Shown here piece after piece: positions 975 through 15,689 of a stretch of 51,964 nucleotides of DNA. This DNA is from Actinomycetota bacterium (GTDB lineage: Bacteria > Actinomycetota > UBA4738 > CALAEC01). The stretch lies in NCBI GenBank assembly GCA_050693165.1, contig JBOGVX010000120.1, positions 1 through 51,964 on the forward strand, written 5' to 3'. Both the position numbers and the translations under genes were made by a program. How positions within the stretch are numbered: the first letter of the stretch is position 1; every line of letters starts with the position of its first letter. Below the pieces are notes generated by a model that was not told the DNA's origin, did not search any database, and saw only the letters and a list, made by a program, of their open reading frames with translations.

Positions 975-1814
975 GTGAGCTATTTGGGCGTGTTCGGCCT
1001 CTGGCTCCAGGAGAAGGAGCTCCTCGGCCGGCCCGACGCGGTCAGGGTCGCCGATGAGCTGACCCGGGTCGCGAAGCGAACAGTGGACGGCGCCTCGATC
1101 CAGCCTGGACAACGAGTGCTCGACCTGGGCTCCGGCACGGGCGCGGTCGCCCTCGCGGCGGCCGACAAGGGCGCGAACGTCGTGGCGGTCGACGTCGACG
1201 GAGTCGCGCTGGCTCGCGGCCGCGAGCTCAGCACGTCCATCCAGGCCCCCGTCCGTCATCTCCGGGCCGACGGGAAGGCGCTGCCTTTCGCCGACGACAG
1301 CTTCGACGTGTCCGTCCATCGCTCCGTGCTGATCTACATGAGATCCCGCGAGAAGGCCATCAGGGAGGAGCGCCGCGTGCTGCGGAACGGAGGGCGCGTG
1401 TCGTGCTCCGAGTCCCTGGGCACCGAGCTGGACCTGGAGACGGAGGACCTGGGGATCGAGCGAGTCTGGAGGGGCGGCCTGAGGGACATCCTCCTCGACT
1501 CGCCGGACGCCTTCATGCTCTCCGCTCCCGCCCTGGAATACCTGTACGTCGAGAACGGCTTCGCGGAGGTATCGATGGCCGCCGTACGGCACGCGGTGAA
1601 GCTCGAGTCTGCGGATGCCGTCGCCCGGGCCTTCGCCGTCAGCCCCCCGGCCGCGCTCTCCGCCCGCGAGCGGTGGCAGCGTGCCGGCATCGCGGCCGGC
1701 CTGATCGACGAGTTCCTGGCCAGGCTTGTGGCGGAGGCGGAGCGGGGCCGGCCGGCGACCCTGACCTCCCTGGAGGGATACCTCACCGCTCGGGCCCGAA
1801 AACTCCGCATCTAG
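975..1814 (+). CDS. class I SAM-dependent methyltransferase
   Basis: ORF 816-1814 contains VLDLGSGTGAVALAAADKGANVVAVDVD (SAM-binding motif I plus acidic loop) and RVLRNGGRV. The 5' part of the ORF overlaps the divergent gene starting at 916, so the start is placed at in-frame GTG 975. The start is uncertain; 984 and 990 are alternatives. Confidence 0.72.
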   Translation: MSYLGVFGLWLQEKELLGRPDAVRVADELTRVAKRTVDGASIQPGQRVLDLGSGTGAVALAAADKGANVVAVDVDGVALARGRELSTSIQAPVRHLRADGKALPFADDSFDVSVHRSVLIYMRSREKAIREERRVLRNGGRVSCSESLGTELDLETEDLGIERVWRGGLRDILLDSPDAFMLSAPALEYLYVENGFAEVSMAAVRHAVKLESADAVARAFAVSPPAALSARERWQRAGIAAGLIDEFLARLVAEAERGRPATLTSLEGYLTARARKLRI

Positions 1815-1816
1815 CA

Positions 1817-1845
1817 GGAGGTTCCACTCCGGGTGTCGAACCTCC
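1817..1845 (+). terminator. possible stem-loop after the methyltransferase gene (GGAGGTTC-N13-GAACCTCC)
   Basis: An 8-bp perfect inverted repeat (1817-1824 / 1838-1845) begins 3 nt after the stop at 1812-1814. There is no U-tract, so function is uncertain. Confidence 0.3.
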
Positions 1846-1897
1846 CTGCCACAACCTAGGCCGCAACCCGGGGATGCGGTCCGAGGGCCGTACACCT

Positions 1898-4201
1898 ATG
1901 ATTCAGCCCACTCCCCGCATGAATCGACGCCCACTGGAAAAGCTCCAAGCGGCGGCCGGTTTCGCGCTGGCAACGCTTCTTGTCGCGATCGGCCTACCTC
2001 TCGCCGGGTCCGTGCTCGCCCAAGAGCCGGCGCCCAGCCCCACCGCGAGTGGAAAGGCTCCCAAGGCCGGCCCCGGAGAGACGCCGGTCCCCGGCCCAAC
2101 TGGGTCCGGGACCCCCACGCCCTCCCCCTCCCCCACGATCGCCGCCGGCGCCAAGAGCATCACGGACACCGAGTACCTGAACGTCCACATCGACGAAACC
2201 GGTGCGGCCGGCGACGCCGTGCTGAAGGACTGGCTCCGCGTTCGGGGGCCCGCGGGGGCGCCGATCACCGTCGTCGACCCGGTCATGGTCGAGGACCCGA
2301 AGCCGACGGCGGGAACCCCCAGCCCCGACGAGTCCGACTCCGTGTCCTGGGACGTGACACTGCCCTCGAGCCAGTACACCGACCTCTACTACGAGGGCGC
2401 GGTCCTCCGCGACGAGGAAGGCATGTACATGACCCCGAGGGGTGCGCGACCGCTCCCCGTCGAGGTGGCGATCAAGTACTACACGGGCCCCCCCGGCGCG
2501 GAGTCGCCCGGGGAGTCGAGCGCGTTCCGAGCCGCACGAGGCCCGGCCAAGCTCGTATTCGAGGTCACGAACAAGACACGCCAGATGCAGGAGGTCACCT
2601 ACAGCGACATCCAGACCGGCGAGCAGCAGACGGCGGTCGTGCCGGTGTGGACGCCGTACGTCGTGAAGATCGGACCGATCCTTTTCCCGGACGATCAGTT
2701 CGACCGCATCCAGACCGACGGTGTCGAGTCGCGCGACGTCGCGGGCGGTGGAACAGAGGTCACCTGGACCCTCAACCTCGCGCCCCCCGACTACGACGCC
2801 ACCCAGACTGCCATCGCCCAGTTCCTGGTCGCGGCGCCGGAGATCCCCGAGATCAGGATCGTGGCGCAGCCGCAGTACCCGGCCGCGCAGGCAAAAGCAG
2901 CCTCGCCGGACGAGGTCCAGTTCCAGAAGGGCCGCCGCTCGTTCCTCTACGACGTGTTCGACCTGCTGCGTTCGAACCTGATCTCGCTGACCGGGCTGTT
3001 CGGCCTTCTGGACGACGCGTTCTCGAACCTCGCCATCCCGCTGATCTCCCCCGACAAGGGCAACCGCGAGGCGGGCGAGTTCGACGACCCGAACCAGCTG
3101 TGGGCGCTCTGGACCCTGGCCAAGGGGATGGAGCAGCTCGACCGGGCGCTCAACGTCCTCGACTACTCGCTTCAGCTGTCCCGGGCCGCGGTCAAGGGCC
3201 AGATAGCCACGCTCTCACAGATGCGCCTGCTGCTCGGCAAGTCGACCGACATACCCGCGGTAGATGTTGTCTCGCTCCTGACGCCGCCGCCGTGCCTTCC
3301 CCTCTGCACACCAGCCGACATCGAGGCCTACCTCGAAGGCGTAGCAGGAGGAGCCGAGGGCCTGCTCGAGGAGATCCTCGGCGGATCGATCTGGCAGAAC
3401 ATCAAGGACCTCGAGTCGCTGCTCGGCTGCATCGACTGCGCCGAGGACACTCAACCGTTCCTGCCCGAGGCGCCCGCGTCGGTGACTCCCACATGTCCTC
3501 AGTGCGCGGTGATGCTTTCGATCATCCGGCTCAAGCTCGCCCTGTTCGAGCAGAACCTGACCGCGCTCCAGAAGGAGGATCACTCGAACCAGCTCGCGAC
3601 ATTCACCGGTGTCAGCAACACCGCCGAGTCGACGCTGGCGAACGACTGGCGCAAGTTCACGACGATCACGTTCCCGTTCGGGCTCGAAGAGCTCGACGAC
3701 GGCCTGTATCACCTGAAGGTCGACGGTATCGACCTCGTGCAGCAGGCCCTGGGCAACGAGGACCAGCCCAACTCGATCATCTGGGCGATGCACGTTCTGA
3801 CCGACGGGATGGAGTCGCTCTCCGACTCCTTCCATCAGCTCGGAAGCACGTGGCGCTACCTCGCCGACTCGATCCAGAACTTCGGCATCTTCGGGGTTGA
3901 GACCGCGCAGAACACGCTCCAGCTCGACATCAACCAGATCGATCTCAAGAGCGCACAACGGGCCGCGACAGCATCTCGCGTCAGCGGCGAGACCCCGACG
4001 ACGTTCATGGGCTCGCCGGCTAGCTCGAAGGAAGTGCCGGTGGACACGCAGTTCGTGCTTGTCTTCTCGACCGAGGAGCCGGAGCTCACGGTCAGCAGCC
4101 CGCTCTCCTCGGCGGCCGGCAAGGCGGCGGTGGCGGGGGCGTTCCTGGCCTTGATCCTGGCGCTCCTCGCGTTCGCGAGATTCAGGTGGCACCTGCTATG
4201 A
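1898..4201 (+). CDS. large secreted / C-terminally membrane-anchored surface protein, function unknown
   Basis: The long ORF 1403-4201 is trimmed to ATG 1898 (GAGGG lies 10 nt upstream; ATG 1919 is an alternative). N-terminus MIQPTPRMNRRPLEKLQAAAGFALATLLVAIGLPLAGSVLAQE is signal-like, followed by a Pro/Thr/Ser linker. The C-terminal half looks helical and carries three Cys pairs. The last 35 aa form a hydrophobic helix plus RFRWHLL. Confidence 0.7.
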   Translation: MIQPTPRMNRRPLEKLQAAAGFALATLLVAIGLPLAGSVLAQEPAPSPTASGKAPKAGPGETPVPGPTGSGTPTPSPSPTIAAGAKSITDTEYLNVHIDETGAAGDAVLKDWLRVRGPAGAPITVVDPVMVEDPKPTAGTPSPDESDSVSWDVTLPSSQYTDLYYEGAVLRDEEGMYMTPRGARPLPVEVAIKYYTGPPGAESPGESSAFRAARGPAKLVFEVTNKTRQMQEVTYSDIQTGEQQTAVVPVWTPYVVKIGPILFPDDQFDRIQTDGVESRDVAGGGTEVTWTLNLAPPDYDATQTAIAQFLVAAPEIPEIRIVAQPQYPAAQAKAASPDEVQFQKGRRSFLYDVFDLLRSNLISLTGLFGLLDDAFSNLAIPLISPDKGNREAGEFDDPNQLWALWTLAKGMEQLDRALNVLDYSLQLSRAAVKGQIATLSQMRLLLGKSTDIPAVDVVSLLTPPPCLPLCTPADIEAYLEGVAGGAEGLLEEILGGSIWQNIKDLESLLGCIDCAEDTQPFLPEAPASVTPTCPQCAVMLSIIRLKLALFEQNLTALQKEDHSNQLATFTGVSNTAESTLANDWRKFTTITFPFGLEELDDGLYHLKVDGIDLVQQALGNEDQPNSIIWAMHVLTDGMESLSDSFHQLGSTWRYLADSIQNFGIFGVETAQNTLQLDINQIDLKSAQRAATASRVSGETPTTFMGSPASSKEVPVDTQFVLVFSTEEPELTVSSPLSSAAGKAAVAGAFLALILALLAFARFRWHLL

Positions 4202-4884
4202 GGACGCGCGCCGCCGCTCTAGCGTTCCTACTCCTCTCTCTGCTCGTGTCGTGCGGAACTCCCAATGGCACGTCGGGCTCGGGTTCGGAAACGTCCGAGC
4301 TCGAGGCGACGGGCGAGATCCCCCAGCTGGAGACCGGGCCCGAGGAGGTCGGAGGCGCGGCCGGAGCCGCGGAGGGCTTCGGAGAGGAGGCAGTGTCGAC
4401 GGCCGAGGCGACTCCCGAGGGTCTTCACATCGCCACCGTTCAGGTCGCGCCGACCACGCCCGAGCTCGTCGACGCCATCAACTTCACGGGGTTCAAGTCC
4501 GGCGGGCCTAATGCCCTGATCGAGCTGCCGGTCTACGGCCTCAACGAGCGCCAGAACCTCTACTACCTGGTCGTCCCGGTGATCAACGAGGGCAAGGAGG
4601 AGGTCCGCAACCTCGAGGGACGCGCGGAGTTCTTCGACGACCGCGGCCGCCTGATCTGGGAGGAGACGGTCTTCCTCACCCACCTCCCCACCCGGCTACA
4701 GCTGAACCCGCCCTCGTTGCCAAACAAGGACGAGCCGCAACCCGAGCTCTCGGAGGAAGCCTCGAACTACCCGCTCTACTACATACCGACGAACATGGGC
4801 CTTTTCGTCTTCGCGGTTCCCGACCCCGCCGTCGCTCCGAACGTTAAGTCCTGGAGCCTGAGCTTCCTGGTGAGCCAGGTATGA
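4198..4884 (+). CDS. lipoprotein, function unknown
   Basis: The ATG at 4198 overlaps the upstream TGA (ATGA). MRTRAAALAFLLLSLLVSCG gives a lipobox (LVSC), followed by an acidic low-complexity linker. Confidence 0.7.
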   Translation: MRTRAAALAFLLLSLLVSCGTPNGTSGSGSETSELEATGEIPQLETGPEEVGGAAGAAEGFGEEAVSTAEATPEGLHIATVQVAPTTPELVDAINFTGFKSGGPNALIELPVYGLNERQNLYYLVVPVINEGKEEVRNLEGRAEFFDDRGRLIWEETVFLTHLPTRLQLNPPSLPNKDEPQPELSEEASNYPLYYIPTNMGLFVFAVPDPAVAPNVKSWSLSFLVSQV

Positions 4885-6146
4885 GGACACGTGCCGCGAT
4901 CGCTCTCGGCCTGGCCCTGCTCGCAACCGCGTGCAGCGAGTCGGCGAGCACACCCGTGGCCGGACCGACCGGCAGCCCGGGAGCGACTCCGGCCGGAACC
5001 AAGATCGGGCTGCTGTACACGATCTCCGACATCGGCGGCGAGTTCGCTCAGGCGGCGCTGGGCGCCTCGACGCTGGCCACCGAGGACGCACCGACGCGCG
5101 GTCTCGCCATCGAGGTCGTCTCTCGCGACTACGCCGGCAGCGCCAAGCGCGCCGCACAGCTCGCGCAGCAGCTCGCCGACGCGGGCGTCGCGGGCATCGT
5201 TGTGGCCTCCGACGACCCGGCCCTCGTGCCGGCGCTGTCCGGCTTCGATGCGGTGCCGGTCGTGCACGCACTTCTGGCGGACGACGACGCGGTGGACTCC
5301 TCGACGAGCACCTTCCGGGTGGCTCCCTCGAACCGCCTGCAGGCCGAGAAGCTCGCGGACTACCTGGTCGGCGAGCGCGGCCTGGGCAGGCTGGCCATCC
5401 TGCACGACGACAGCGCCTTTGGTTCGGAGGGCGCCGACGACATCGAGGAGGCGCTGGACGAGCAGGGCGCAACAGTGGTGCTGCGCCATCCCTTCAAGGT
5501 CGGCGGCGACATCCACACCCCGATCACGAACGCCGGACAGCTCGGCGCCGACGGCATGGTGCTCTGGACCCGCGAGAGCAGCGAGGCCGGGCGCATCACG
5601 ATCGAGGTGCAGAAGGCCAACCAGGGCTACCAGCTCATCCTTTCCGGCAACCTGGCCACGTTCGACTACGGCAAGAACGCCGCGAGTCAGGTCGTGCCGG
5701 TCGCCTTCCGTGACGGGATCCTGTCGGTGGGCACGTGGGCCGGACCGTGGTTCGAGCTCGACCGCATGCGCGGCTTCTACGAGCGGTTCCGCTCCACCAA
5801 CAACGTCGAGGCGCCGTTCCAGGCCGTGCAGGTCTACGACGCGATCCTGCTGCTGGCCGAGGCCGCGGATGACGCGGGCAGCTCCGACCCGGCCCAAGTG
5901 ACGAGCGCCGTCGAGGAGATCACGGGCTTCGAGGGGGCCGGCGTTCCGATCTCCTTCTCCTCCAACGACCACGAGGGGATCGGGATGGAGGACATGGCGA
6001 TCCTGGCGTTCACGAAGGACCAGGCCTCCGCCGGCGGGGACTTCGCGCCCGAGATCAGCACCGGAGGCGGCTTCTTCACGATCGACACGCGCACGATCAC
6101 GCTCCCGGACGATCTCGCCTACCTGTTGGAAGGGCTGGTCATATGA
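4881..6146 (+). CDS. type I periplasmic-binding-protein lipoprotein (LivK/LivJ-like branched-chain amino-acid binding fold)
   Basis: ATGA overlap with the upstream gene. MRTRAAIALGLALLATACS is a lipobox. The body (KIGLLYTISDIGGEFAQAALGA..., FRVAPSNRLQAEKLADYL, LAILHDDSAFG) follows the Leu/Ile/Val-binding-protein pattern. Confidence 0.8.
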   Translation: MRTRAAIALGLALLATACSESASTPVAGPTGSPGATPAGTKIGLLYTISDIGGEFAQAALGASTLATEDAPTRGLAIEVVSRDYAGSAKRAAQLAQQLADAGVAGIVVASDDPALVPALSGFDAVPVVHALLADDDAVDSSTSTFRVAPSNRLQAEKLADYLVGERGLGRLAILHDDSAFGSEGADDIEEALDEQGATVVLRHPFKVGGDIHTPITNAGQLGADGMVLWTRESSEAGRITIEVQKANQGYQLILSGNLATFDYGKNAASQVVPVAFRDGILSVGTWAGPWFELDRMRGFYERFRSTNNVEAPFQAVQVYDAILLLAEAADDAGSSDPAQVTSAVEEITGFEGAGVPISFSSNDHEGIGMEDMAILAFTKDQASAGGDFAPEISTGGGFFTIDTRTITLPDDLAYLLEGLVI

Positions 6147-8179
6147 GGCCGAGACTCGTGATTGCACTCGCGCTGGCAACGGCACTCTGCATGCCGGCTA
6201 CGGTGTCGGCGTCGCCGGGCAGCTACCAGAGGGACTGGCCGGTCTCCGGAGGCGGGGACACCCTGAGAACGGGATACAACCCTCAGGAGCCGACGCCGTA
6301 CTTCACGAACGGGCATGAGTTCCAGCCGAACCCCGAGTGGGTCACGAAGCTCTCCGACTTCCCCTCGGGCGTGTTCATCGGCGGCGGCCTGATCGTCGTC
6401 GAGGGGCTCGTTATCGTCACCGGAGCCTCGACGAACTCGCTGGTCGCGCTCGATCAGGACACCGGCCTGCCGGTCTGGCGGTTCTCGCCCGATCCTCGAG
6501 GCAGCAAGTACTTCCCCGGTGACGGATATGCGGGCGCTTACCCCGGCCTCAACCATCCTCACTATCACGAGGGCAACGTCTTCGTGACGTTCTCCAACGG
6601 GACGCTCTACTCGCTCGATGCCAGCACCGGTGAACGGGTGTGGCGCTGGGAGGTGCCCGCCGCGGGAGCTCCGGGCGAGGTGAAGGACCACGTGCTCGAC
6701 CCGAAGATCCCGTTCGACTACCACAACCCCAAGCACCGGGAGACGCCGCTCCGCCCCGAGGTTGCCCCCTATACCGGTGACTACGCGAAGTTCCACTCGG
6801 CGGTGAACATATGCACCGACGAGGACCTCGTCATCGTCGAGACGCTCGACGGGCGAGTGTTCGCGGTCGACACGAACAACGGGAACACGATCTGGCACAG
6901 GTACGTCGGCGCTCCGGACTGGCCGGGCGAGTTCAACTGGCCCGAGGAACCCGAGGGCGGGATCACGCCCGCTTCGGGACGCTCGACCCGCAGGTTCGAG
7001 GCACGTCCCGGGGTCGGTTGCCTGGACGACTACATCCTCGCGCCGGTCGAGGACGGCTTCTTCAAGCTGTTCGACAACGACACCGGCCGTTTCCTCGGCG
7101 CGTACGACACGTTCCACCCCGGAGACCTTGGGTTCGCTCACGACGCGGTGGCCGGGATCGCCGATCCCAAGTCTCACGACATCTTCCTCGAGACGCTTTC
7201 GAACAGGCTCGTCCGGCTGTCGCTCCCCGACCTCGTTCCTCGCTGGCAGCACTTCGAGGATGGGGGGACGCTCTCGATCTGCGAGGACCGGCTGGACAGG
7301 TCCACATGCTCGGTCCTGCCCACCACCGAGGGCGGGAAGCAGGACGGCCCGATCGGCGGCTCCGTCTTCGGCGGGAACAGCGCGCTCGACTACCAGAGGC
7401 GGGTCCTCGCCAGCCCGAACGAGGACGGGCACCTCTACATCTGGAAGGGCATCGACGTCAGGGGTCAGAACCCGACGCTTGTTGCGAAGGTGCCCACAGG
7501 GCTGAACCCCCACTCGAAGTCGAACCCGAAGCCGAACTCGATCTCCCACTACCTGCCACGGGACGGGAAGAACCCCCCCTGGCAGCACCGGACCTCCGTC
7601 ATCGCGACCGTGGTGATGGGCGGCGGCATCATCTACTTCCCTGCCACATGGGAGCACGCGATGTACGGCGTGCAGTACCTGCAGAACGGCAGGCTCATGG
7701 CGAAACCCAAGATCGTGTTCCGTTACGAGGTCATGTGGGACGACACGTTCCGCTACCCGCCGTTCGGCGACACGTTCGATAAGCCGATCGTCGACATCGA
7801 CCTGCTCCTCATGGGAGGACCGGCCGTGACGGACGGCCACCTCTACTTCGTGGCGAACGACGGAAGCGTGTACGCGTTCGACCTGCACAACCCGACGGCC
7901 GACACCCAGCGGAACCTCGCGATCCTCGGCTCGGGGATCGTGCCGTTCCTGCCCACGTGGGACGAGCCCCTCGGCAGCTTCGACCGCGTCTGGACCACCG
8001 CGGACTGGTACAAGAACCAGGTCGCCCCGAGCGAGGGCTGGCGGCTCCCGGCCCCCGGCCAGATCGCCCCGTTCGGCCTGCCGGTCGCTCTGTTCGGGTG
8101 GTGGCTCAGGCGAAGATCGCGCCGCCGCGGATCGAGCGTGAAGACCGGCGGCCATTGGGAGGGCACCGAATGGCCGTAA
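6143..8179 (+). CDS. PQQ-like (BamB-type) beta-propeller repeat protein with C-terminal LPAPG / hydrophobic / Arg-rich sorting-signal-like tail
   Basis: ATGA overlap with the upstream gene. The signal peptide is MRPRLVIALALATALCMPATVSA. Repeated blades fit the motif x-ALD-x-x-TG-x-x-W: LVALDQDTGLPVWRF, LYSLDASTGERVWRW, VFAVDTNNGNTIWHRY. The C-terminus reads RLPAPGQIAPFGLPVALFGWWLRRRSRRRG. Confidence 0.8.
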   Translation: MRPRLVIALALATALCMPATVSASPGSYQRDWPVSGGGDTLRTGYNPQEPTPYFTNGHEFQPNPEWVTKLSDFPSGVFIGGGLIVVEGLVIVTGASTNSLVALDQDTGLPVWRFSPDPRGSKYFPGDGYAGAYPGLNHPHYHEGNVFVTFSNGTLYSLDASTGERVWRWEVPAAGAPGEVKDHVLDPKIPFDYHNPKHRETPLRPEVAPYTGDYAKFHSAVNICTDEDLVIVETLDGRVFAVDTNNGNTIWHRYVGAPDWPGEFNWPEEPEGGITPASGRSTRRFEARPGVGCLDDYILAPVEDGFFKLFDNDTGRFLGAYDTFHPGDLGFAHDAVAGIADPKSHDIFLETLSNRLVRLSLPDLVPRWQHFEDGGTLSICEDRLDRSTCSVLPTTEGGKQDGPIGGSVFGGNSALDYQRRVLASPNEDGHLYIWKGIDVRGQNPTLVAKVPTGLNPHSKSNPKPNSISHYLPRDGKNPPWQHRTSVIATVVMGGGIIYFPATWEHAMYGVQYLQNGRLMAKPKIVFRYEVMWDDTFRYPPFGDTFDKPIVDIDLLLMGGPAVTDGHLYFVANDGSVYAFDLHNPTADTQRNLAILGSGIVPFLPTWDEPLGSFDRVWTTADWYKNQVAPSEGWRLPAPGQIAPFGLPVALFGWWLRRRSRRRGSSVKTGGHWEGTEWP

Positions 8180-8793
8180 CGACGCGACCGAAGGCCCTCG
8201 CGCTGGATGACGTCAGGGTCGTCCGCTTCCCGTGGCGGAAGCTCCTCATCGGCGTCGCCGTCTTCTTCGGCCTCGTGGCGAGCGGCTTCGTGGTCACCAA
8301 CACCTACGCGACGCTGGCGCAGCAGAGCCTCGAGACCGAGTGGGCCGGGATCGTGGCGAGCGGCGGGTCACCGGCTCCCATCGTTGGAGAGCCCGTGGCC
8401 AAGATAGTGATCCCTCGTATAGGGCTGGAGCGGGTCGTGCTCGAGGGCGAGGATCGCGGGGTCCTGAGAAAGGCCCCGGCCCATGCGCCCGGAACCCCCC
8501 TCCCGGGCGGCGCCGGAAACTCGGTGATCCGTGGTCACCGGCTGCTGTGGTCCGGCCCGTTCCGCGACCTCGACAAGCTCGGCCTCGGCTCGGAGATCCA
8601 CGTGCAAACGGTCGAGGGGACGGCCGTCTACCTGGTGGCCGGGATCTTCCGCCAGGACGGCCGGCGTGTCGACATGTTCGAGGACACGACGTTGCCATAC
8701 CTGACGCTGGTTACCAGCGACCCACCACTCAAGGCCGACGGAACCCTCGTGGTTCGAGCGGCGATGGTAGAACGGGACGGGGTGCCGATCTGA
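8170..8793 (+). CDS. sortase-family protein with Ser in place of the catalytic Cys
   Basis: ATG 8170 overlaps the upstream gene by 10 nt. It has an N-terminal TM segment. NSVIRGHRLLWSGPFRDLDKL matches the sortase His motif. YLTLVTSDPP...TLVVRA aligns to the TLxTC...R motif but has AGC (Ser) at 8716-8718. Compare TLTTCHP in the canonical sortase at 15009-15689. Confidence 0.75.
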   Translation: MAVTTRPKALALDDVRVVRFPWRKLLIGVAVFFGLVASGFVVTNTYATLAQQSLETEWAGIVASGGSPAPIVGEPVAKIVIPRIGLERVVLEGEDRGVLRKAPAHAPGTPLPGGAGNSVIRGHRLLWSGPFRDLDKLGLGSEIHVQTVEGTAVYLVAGIFRQDGRRVDMFEDTTLPYLTLVTSDPPLKADGTLVVRAAMVERDGVPI

Positions 8794-8870: not shown

Positions 8871-9149
8871 ATGCTGCTGGTCGCCTCCGTCTTCGCGATC
8901 GCCGTGTCGGGCGTCTACACCGTTGACGCGATCGGCAAGACCACGCCGTGGACGCCGCAGCAACAACAGGACATGGCCGGGCTGCCGAACCCGCCCGCGC
9001 AGTACGCGCCCATGGAGGACGGCCGGCTGCGCCAGCTCTCGCCCGAGGAGTACGCGCAGCTCCAGGAGATCCGCTCACTCGTCGAGCGGTTCCCCGTCCC
9101 GGACGAGTTCGCAAACATCAAGAACCCAGCGCAGCGAGGGGGAGGCTGA
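8871..9149 (+). CDS. small membrane-anchored or secreted protein, function unknown
   Basis: ATG 8871 lies in ORF 8232-9149. The N-terminus is hydrophobic (MLLVASVFAIAVSGVYTV). The stop overlaps the start of the next gene by 1 nt. Confidence 0.5.
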   Translation: MLLVASVFAIAVSGVYTVDAIGKTTPWTPQQQQDMAGLPNPPAQYAPMEDGRLRQLSPEEYAQLQEIRSLVERFPVPDEFANIKNPAQRGGG

Positions 9150-14738: not shown

Positions 14739-15012
14739 AAGCGGGGCGCGAGGCTGGCCCCGGAACCTCCTTCTGATCCTGGCCGTCGTGCTCCACGCCG
14801 GAGTCGGGTTCATCTATCTCGTGTCGGGGCTCGTGGCGCCGCTGTGGGGAGTCGCGGTGCTGATCGTTCTCTGGCTGGGGATGTCCGTGTTCCTCGTCGG
14901 AGCGTTGCGTCGCGGGAAGGTCTGGCACGCGCTCGCCGTGCCGGTCGCCGGAGGCGTCCTGTGGTTCGCGGTCGTCCAGGGCCTCGGAACCCTGTTCGAC
15001 TGGACCGCCTAG
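14710..15012 (+). CDS. small integral membrane protein, function unknown
   Basis: A 100-aa ORF with three hydrophobic segments. GTG 14710 is the only canonical in-frame start and overlaps livF by 29 nt. Confidence 0.45.
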   Translation: MSKRPTSAPESGARGWPRNLLLILAVVLHAGVGFIYLVSGLVAPLWGVAVLIVLWLGMSVFLVGALRRGKVWHALAVPVAGGVLWFAVVQGLGTLFDWTA

Positions 15013-15689
15013 TTCTCGAAGATCTCGCTCGAGACCAGCTTGGCCCGCACGATAAGCCGCTGCGCCGCGCTGCCCGGCGGGTGACACGTCGTTAGCGTGA
15101 GGATCGAGCCGTTGCCCGGGTCGAGCACACCGAGATCCGTCGGGGTCGTGATGAAAGGCCTGCCCGTGACCTCGTAGGTGCACCGGCCCACCGGCGTCTC
15201 CAGGGTGATCCGGTCCCCGGCCGACAGGTCGTCGATCTCGGCGAACGGTTTGCCGTAGGTCGTCCGGTGGCCGGCGATCGCGGAGTTGCCCTGCTCGCAC
15301 GGCAATGCCGACTCCTGGTAGTGCCCCGCCCCGGCCTGCAACGCCGAGAGAGTGGTGCCTTCGACGACGATCGTGTCGAGCCCCAGCGCGGGGATCTCGA
15401 TCCGAGTCAGGGCGTCGCCGGGCTCGACCGTCCGGGTGATGTAGGCCCTCCGGCTCGAGGAGGAGGCGAACTGGTCCTCGAGCTTGCCCTGCCGGTAGTC
15501 GGTGTAGAGGTTCGTCAGGAACGGCCACGCGAACAGGAGCGCTCCGCCGAGCAGCATGAGCACCGACAGGACCGCGAGGAACCGCCGCGGCCCGGGGCGT
15601 CGTCGCCACGAGTCGACGAGGACCCCCAGAGCGGAACCGACGCGCTTCGCGCCGCGCGGCTCGCCGCCGGGCGCGCGAGAGCCGAGCAT
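15009..15689 (-). CDS. sortase (class E-like) transpeptidase
   Basis: N-terminal TM segment (FLAVLSVLMLLGGALLFAWPF), GNSAIAGHRTTYGKPFAEIDDL (His motif), LTLTTCHPPGSAAQRLIVRA (TLxTC Cys plus Arg). Start placed at ATG 15689; GTG 15725 is an alternative. Confidence 0.85.
   Translation of the reverse strand: MLGSRAPGGEPRGAKRVGSALGVLVDSWRRRPGPRRFLAVLSVLMLLGGALLFAWPFLTNLYTDYRQGKLEDQFASSSSRRAYITRTVEPGDALTRIEIPALGLDTIVVEGTTLSALQAGAGHYQESALPCEQGNSAIAGHRTTYGKPFAEIDDLSAGDRITLETPVGRCTYEVTGRPFITTPTDLGVLDPGNGSILTLTTCHPPGSAAQRLIVRAKLVSSEIFEN

Follow-up and report, generated by a model that had tools for sequence, protein, structure and literature searches.

Is a tail built like a cell-wall sorting signal still a signal when the sortase homologue encoded beside it has lost its catalytic cysteine? 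The question is raised by a 51,964-nucleotide stretch of DNA from an Actinomycetota bacterium (GenBank assembly GCA_050693165.1, contig JBOGVX010000120.1), hereafter the window. One of its genes encodes a secreted beta-propeller protein that ends in LPAPG, a membrane span and an arginine cluster, and the next gene encodes a protein of sortase fold. A first interpretation made from the letters alone, here called the sequence-only reading, proposed either a co-evolved enzyme and substrate with altered serine chemistry or a non-cleaving anchoring role. We favor, with a probability of about 0.55, the interpretation that the tail is a type I membrane anchor that is not cleaved and that docks, through its LP motif, to a co-translated pseudo-sortase in the surface complex of a Liv-type importer. 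Most likely, the pair consists of a sorting signal and a sortase that have both decayed. The features concerned are the following (positions in the window, strand, description).

6143-8179, +, propeller gene: open reading frame (ORF) of 678 residues encoding a secreted, C-terminally anchored 8-bladed PQQ/BamB-like beta-propeller
6143-6214, +, probable signal peptide, MRPRLVIALALATALCMPATVSA/SP, read from the sequence
8036-8059, +, juxtamembrane motif G632-W-R-L-P-A-P-G639 (GWRLPAPG), with the conserved core G-aromatic-R-L-P
8045-8059, +, LPAPG, residues 635-639, within GWRLPAPG
8060-8107, +, hydrophobic membrane span of 16 residues, QIAPFGLPVALFGWWL; modeled helix 645-661
8108-8131, +, basic cluster RRRSRRRG, a positive-inside stop-transfer signal read from the sequence
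8132-8176, +, predicted cytoplasmic end of 15 residues, SSVKTGGHWEGTEWP
8170-8793, +, sortase-fold protein of 207 residues with an N-terminal membrane helix; Pfam Sortase (PF04203, MEROPS C60)

The propeller protein matches Pfam PQQ_2 (E 7.9e-17). Its AlphaFold2 (AF2) model has a predicted template modeling score (pTM) of 0.78, and BamB and YxaL are the top Foldseek matches to that model (E 3e-16, TM-score on the target up to 0.83). The C-terminus reads DWYKNQVAPSEGWRLPAPG-QIAPFGLPVALFGWWL-RRRSRRRG-SSVKTGGHWEGTEWP and then stops. A probable signal peptide, one C-terminal span and positive charges on the cytoplasmic side indicate a type I single-pass protein, as judged from the sequence and from the AF2 helices at residues 4-16 and 645-661; the first of these helices is followed by a low-confidence linker. 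In a cell-wall sorting signal, a short recognition motif no more than ~30-45 residues from the C-terminus precedes a hydrophobic span and a basic cluster. Here L635 lies 44 residues from the end and is followed by the 16-residue span and RRRSRRRG. The tripartite layout described in the sequence-only reading (LPAPG, a 16-residue span, RRRSRRRG and 15 further residues) is thus confirmed at 8045-8176. The same holds for its observation that proline stands where LPXTG or LAXTG has threonine. Sorting signals require Thr at P1, ahead of the scissile bond (LPXTG, LAXTG, NPXTN, LPXTA; PMC5148588, PMC8361268), and P1 of the window's protein is Pro. In the AF2 model, the predicted local distance difference test (pLDDT) is <50 on both flanks of the motif (residues 623-631 and 635-647). 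This is consistent with a flexible juxtamembrane linker, which would suit a short linear docking motif.

We collected 33 propeller homologues from the protein collection (orthologues from Actinomycetota metagenomes) and further loci from 401 genomes of the phylum and a metagenome scan. The tally below covers 37 distinct orthologous tails, all from lineages that carry the sortase-like gene, down to ~40% identity.

Two before Arg: Gly in 31 of 37
One before Arg: aromatic in 37 of 37 (W 21, Y 12, F 4)
Arg position: Arg in 33 of 37
Leu position: Leu in 34 of 37 (F 2, I 1)
Pro position: Pro in 37 of 37
P2 position: T 16, A 8, K 6, S 5 (n = 37)
Would-be scissile P1 position: P 20, A 7, S 5, G 5 (n = 37), never Thr
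P1' position: G 17, A 15, L 5 (n = 37)

In every orthologue the first basic pair comes 17-23 residues after LP, and an Arg/Lys cluster is present in all 37 tails. The residues after the cluster number 10-57 and their middle part is not conserved. A sister family at ~40% identity has the tail G-Y/F-R-L/F-P-K-x-A-G. LPAPG itself was found in 3 of the 37 tails, a minority, and LPTPG is the commonest pentapeptide (7 of 37). Asking whether LPAPG is conserved in orthologues therefore gives a divided answer: the pentapeptide is not kept, whereas LP with the upstream G-aromatic-Arg is. Judged from these tails, the conserved element is G-aromatic-R-L-P plus two or three small residues and not an LPXTG-type pentapeptide, and a core kept in 37 distinct tails indicates that the tripartite layout is not a chance arrangement. 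As a separate observation, the span of the window's family holds a second conserved proline-rich element, P-x-G-[LI]-P (APFGLP), which is unusual for a span of 16 residues; the sister family has none.

The neighboring protein retains the fold of a sortase and has lost its catalytic residues. The product of 8170-8793 matches Pfam Sortase (E 1.2e-19) and scores 62.2 bits against the class E NCBIfam model NF033747, below the cut-off of 160. Its AF2 model (pLDDT 86.7) has the sortase beta-barrel, and Foldseek superposes it at a root-mean-square deviation of ~2 A on C. perfringens SrtD (4d70, 2.2 A), C. diphtheriae SrtF (5uus) and T. fusca SrtE. The His-Cys-Arg triad is incomplete: LTLVTSDP stands in place of TLxTC, His123 is kept, Ser183 occupies the Cys site and Thr192 the catalytic Arg site. 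The Arg of 'VVRA' was considered as the catalytic Arg and rejected, as alignment to canonical sortases puts the catalytic position at Thr192. We aligned 80 homologues with the two canonical sortases of this genome and tallied the sites on a subset of 54 sequences; sister-family copies were aligned separately.

His site (canonical AGHR): kept in 50 of 54 in the window's family; Asn or Gly in the sister family (TANR, SGR, AGR)
Cys site (canonical TLTTC): Ser 47, Ala 6, Gly 1 (n = 54) in the window's family; Asn, Pro, Ser or Gly in the sister family
Catalytic Arg site (canonical QRLIVRA): T 27, V 7, L 7, S 6 in the window's family; kept in the sister family

Across the alignment of 80, Ala is at the Cys position (LVTADPP) in 13 homologues. 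In locus L061, one such variant (P0073) is encoded in the same gene cassette after a propeller whose WRLPSPA tail is normal. Sister-family proteins, too, pass the Pfam Sortase threshold. Sortases work by attack of the Cys on the carbonyl of the P1 Thr, with the participation of His and Arg (PMC8361268, PMC5148588). Because the nucleophile alternates with alanine and because the two families lost different members of the triad while the pairing was kept, the alignments argue strongly against catalysis and for a pseudo-sortase instead of a serine enzyme.

The two genes are physically and translationally linked. The start of the sortase-like gene (8170) overlaps the propeller stop by 10 nucleotides (ATGGCCGTAA). 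The 3' end of the propeller gene is CAT TGG GAG GGC ACC GAA TGG CCG TAA, and the Shine-Dalgarno sequence GGGAGGG (8157-8163), a six-base spacer and the ATG at 8170 all lie inside its last codons (WEGTEWP). The same construction, with the overlap A/GTGGCCGTRR, recurs in loci L004, L006, L007 and L061; the orthologue ends are GGGAGGGAGAGGG-ATGGCCGTAA in L006 and GTGGCCGTGA in L004 and L061. Sister-family proteins have acidic ends (EVVEEAVP, then the stop) that encode GAGGAGG, followed by a GTGA or ATGA overlap. The terminal residues (WEGxxWP, HWWP, EE-rich) are conserved because they encode the translation signals of the next gene. The order of the two genes and the stop/start overlap are common to both families, the window's and the sister; from this comparison we conclude that translational coupling of the propeller and sortase-like genes is ancient.

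Motif and sortase-like gene also occur together. Every G-aromatic-R-L-P tail that we inspected with its DNA is followed by a sortase-like gene, with the exception of a tandem duplicate in genome G044, where the first propeller copy precedes a second copy that in turn precedes the sortase-like gene. This genome belongs to the same genus (loci L006/L019); its two propeller paralogues, each with a GWRLPT[PA]G tail, share 65-68% identity with the window's protein, and the first ends in GGRWWAGEAVDR, overlapping the start of the second by ATGA. A distant propeller clade (33-37% identity; L028, L059, L060, L071) keeps the cassette and lacks the sortase-like gene. Its linker is longer and different (containing GYKGAQQNLPWNLG, VQQQRIGRLALL or AAASIPLWPW), with no aromatic-Arg and no Arg cluster. 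This pattern fits a link between motif and partner. The adjacency to the sortase homologue stressed in the sequence-only reading is accordingly borne out by the overlap, the conserved order, the coupling and the loss of the motif core in the gene-less clade. In 16 same-contig pairs, motif flavor correlates with pseudo-sortase residues only at the level of lineages (for example, Y[KR]LP[AS]GL pairs with Glu/Gln at the S3 site and Val at the Arg site), which does not amount to independent evidence.

Conservation within the pseudo-sortase points to continued use of the former substrate cleft. The most conserved positions are H105, P112, G113, G116, N117, G122, H123 and R124, together with L178-T179-L180-V181-T182-x-D184-P185. 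In real sortases, these positions form the strands and loop that line the active site. The S3 subsite has also changed. In class E sortases, a Tyr at this site (Tyr229 of SrtE1, the Y of GHY) has been proposed to favor Ala over Pro at P3, and the corresponding residue of S. aureus SrtA, an LPXTG reader, is Ala (PMC5148588). Alignments to 5GO6, 5UUS and 5CUW place Ala106 of the window's pseudo-sortase at the Tyr site. No aligned member of the window's family has Tyr there (Val, Ala, Leu and other residues occur), and sister-family copies have Leu or Ala. Such residues would be compatible with the Pro that the partner tail presents at P3.

From these observations we propose the following mechanism. 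The signal peptide would export the propeller, and the C-terminal span would hold it in the membrane with the Arg cluster inside. G-aromatic-R-L-P would then sit at the outer membrane face, level with the ectodomain of the N-terminally anchored sortase-fold protein. The latter would be a pseudo-enzyme (Cys and Arg lost; His and Cys lost in the sister family) that has best conserved its former active-site strands, and it may bind the LP motif without cutting it, possibly aided by contacts between both membrane helices. Docking would tie the BamB-like propeller into the surface complex of the Liv-type ATP-binding cassette (ABC) importer whose operon surrounds the pair. The propeller fold is of the scaffold type represented by BamB and YxaL, which by analogy suits an importer-associated surface complex. 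The tail would have kept the architecture of a sorting signal (LP motif, span, Arg cluster) while no longer being cuttable. The non-cleaving anchoring role, one of the two options of the sequence-only reading, fits the absence of Thr at P1 and a partner without Cys and Arg.

The main rival is that the tail is a plain stop-transfer anchor. G-aromatic-R-L-P would then be merely structural, and the pseudo-sortase would serve another partner (binding proteins, the permease or the cell wall) or touch the propeller through the membrane helices only. We consider this rather unlikely, although several observations count in its favor and against docking. The would-be P2, P1 and P1' residues vary, and those after LP differ by family (T/A/S-P/A/S-G/A versus K-x-A-G), which would suit a loose linker equally well. 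The segment G632-W633-R634 has slightly higher AF2 confidence than its flanks, with a beta-bridge at residue 634, and could instead pack against the propeller. A plain C-terminal anchor with no LP motif is also found on the operon's first protein. The co-occurrence of motif and gene represents essentially one loss or gain event among related lineages and is statistically weak. The complex could be held solely by membrane-helix contacts, for which the conserved Pro/Gly of the span (P-x-G-L-P) could mediate packing, and the pseudo-sortase could bind another ligand, such as cell-wall precursors or binding proteins. On the other side, the gene-less clade has another linker on the same propeller fold, no part of the pseudo-sortase is better conserved than its former substrate cleft, the S3 Tyr has been swapped for small or aliphatic residues, and translational coupling is kept in both families.

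Cleavage or transfer of the LPAPG tail by a Ser-His sortase variant is very improbable. The window's copy does have His123 and Ser183, most homologues share the Ser (47 of 54) and the TSDPP loop is very well conserved. However, natural homologues with Ala or Gly in place of Ser still have both partner and motif, the catalytic Arg is lost, and the sister family keeps the pairing without His or any nucleophile. The would-be scissile position is Pro here and never Thr in the 37 tails, and the known mechanism needs attack by Cys on the P1 Thr carbonyl (PMC8361268). The altered-chemistry proposal is therefore not supported, in view of the S 47, A 6, G 1 distribution at the nucleophile, the missing Arg and the sister family without His and Cys. 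What survives of the co-evolved pair is the pairing itself, which is real and co-inherited; it is not a pairing of enzyme and substrate with new chemistry.

The genome has sortases of the ordinary kind. A canonical class E-type enzyme is encoded in the window and a second intact one on contig C71:

15009-15689, -, canonical class E-type sortase with an intact triad (AGHR / TLTTC / QRLIVRA)

Ordinary sortase substrates with LPFTG and LADTG tails are encoded on contigs C1 (ORF from 8489, +) and C211 (ORF from 3819, -) and are presumably served by the two intact enzymes. Because the genome holds these two sortases and such ordinary tails, the dead copy is not the housekeeping enzyme. We also looked for further LPAPG-type tails in the 2.58-Mb genome; among the sorting-signal-like tails listed, no ORF besides the propeller has an LPAPG end. 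Processing of the tail by one of the canonical enzymes (15009-15689, minus strand, or contig C71), with the pseudo-sortase only presenting or regulating, has in its favor the intact sortases with their LPFTG/LADTG substrates and the canonical LPXTG/LAXTG signals of some upstream neighbors in the wider family described below, but is hardly credible given that none of the 37 tails has a P1 Thr and that sorting signals do not typically have cytoplasmic tails as long as those here, which reach 57 residues.

Distant Cys-less sortase homologues (for example P0116, from a Nocardioides metagenome-assembled genome) are found in many Actinomycetota families (loci L029-L044 and L026/L027). Their genes belong to phosphate-type importer operons, where they immediately follow, and overlap, the gene of a protein with a terminal hydrophobic anchor. 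These proteins have 300-350 residues, are mostly also His-less (GRR/GRQ) and carry two extra C-terminal membrane helices, past which 15 of 16 end in [LIF][LI]P[NSA][TLM][LIV]-COOH. None of the curated NCBIfam models reaches its class-specific cut-off on this wider family. The upstream neighbors often carry LPMTG, LASTG, LPSTG, VPVTG or HPNTG with a span and basic residues, and otherwise have motif-poor anchors. The terminal LP end looks like a built-in LP ligand, and together with the tails of the upstream neighbors it suggests that the dead sortases of the wider family still deal with LP peptides. The window's pair shows the traits of a pseudo-sortase with an anchored partner: a Cys-less fold, a downstream overlap, an importer operon and conservation across lineages. 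A literature search found no paper on pseudo-sortases or Cys-less sortases. We tentatively suggest, with somewhat less assurance than we attach to docking in the window's system, that Actinomycetota have turned the sortase fold into a non-covalent reader of tails built like sorting signals, one that assembles surface proteins onto ABC importers. Its ligand would be the LP motif of the partner or, in the wider family, the protein's own C-terminal LPxTL end, and the tail would act as an assembly signal and not as a cleavage signal.

We compared the system with known ones. It shares with sorting signals (LPXTG of class A; LAXTG of class E, as in the Streptomyces coelicolor SrtE1/SrtE2 substrates) a C-terminal LP-led motif, a span, an Arg-rich cluster and genetic linkage to a sortase-fold protein that an N-terminal helix holds in the membrane. 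It differs in that P1 is Pro (Pro, Ala, Ser or Gly in orthologues) and not Thr, the cytoplasmic tails have 10-57 residues, conservation continues on the upstream side of the motif (G-aromatic-Arg) and not on the downstream side, and neither the catalytic Cys nor the catalytic Arg is present in the partner. Class E sortases (S. coelicolor SrtE1 5CUW, S. avermitilis SrtE 5GO5, C. diphtheriae SrtF 5UUS, T. fusca SrtE 9IOK) are among the closest relatives of the neighbor by sequence and fold and have the same membrane topology, whereas the triad of the neighbor is broken (Cys to Ser/Ala, Arg to Thr) and its S3 Tyr is replaced. The wider Cys-less homologues, as checked on L026/L027, likewise have a dead sortase fold coupled after an extracytoplasmic protein in an importer operon, with the partner held by a sorting-signal-like C-terminal helix that has no cleavage site. 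Unlike them, the window's operon is of the Liv type and not the phosphate type, its partner protein is a BamB-like propeller, and its pseudo-sortase has 207 residues, retains the His, and shows neither the two additional C-terminal helices nor the LPxTL-like end. The anchored protein shares its fold with the 8-bladed PQQ-like propellers BamB and YxaL, which are scaffolds and not enzymes, but is about twice as big and contains large insertions. As a type I membrane protein in a phylum of Gram-positive type, it also differs from BamB, an outer-membrane lipoprotein.

Rhomboid-family pseudo-proteases, the iRhoms, offer a parallel: they have lost catalysis, are conserved and membrane-embedded, and are thought to hold single-pass membrane clients. 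The likeness is one of analogy only, since fold and kingdom are unrelated and client binding has been shown for iRhoms and is proposed here. Sorting signals are usually taken to mean that a protein is cut and stapled to the wall. The tail described here has the same architecture, cannot be cut by the known mechanism and is widespread in uncultured Actinomycetota. If docking is correct, the annotations 'class E sortase' and 'LPXTG-like protein' mislead for a whole group of loci, and the sortase cleft can be used as a peptide-binding module. Bacteria of Gram-positive type could then hold large extracytoplasmic scaffolds beside nutrient importers. The pair would be a natural case of an enzyme and its substrate decaying into a receptor and its ligand.

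The pair is embedded in a cassette of conserved order: a large C-terminally anchored protein, a lipoprotein, a Liv-type binding protein, the propeller, the pseudo-sortase and a small membrane protein, followed by a binding protein that is a lipoprotein of the twin-arginine translocation (Tat) type and by the genes for LivH, LivM-G and LivF. The further members located in the window are:

1403-4201, +, first cassette gene: large protein with a plain C-terminal anchor (ending AGAFLALILALLAFARFRWHLL)
4186-4884, +, second cassette gene: lipoprotein
4881-6146, +, Liv-type substrate-binding lipoprotein: Pfam Peripla_BP_6 (E 1.2e-33), ATGA overlap with the propeller gene
8871-9149, +, small single-pass membrane protein of 92 residues with an AGLPxPP motif, part of the conserved cassette

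The first two products match no Pfam or NCBIfam family; conserved counterparts of both are present in L028 and L061. The order around the Liv-type binding lipoprotein is kept in L028, L059 and L061. The small membrane protein (8871-9149) has no Pfam match; the ATG at 8871, 78 nucleotides past the stop of the sortase-like gene, is its only in-frame canonical start. It has counterparts in the sister family and in the gene-less clade. In L071 (metagenome contig Ga0183260_10000574, ORF 2258-4735), the propeller reads in-frame into this protein, either because the two are naturally fused or because a stop is missing. An extracytoplasmic [AS]G[LV]P-x-PP motif of the small membrane protein is present in all versions of the cassette, including those without the sortase-like gene.

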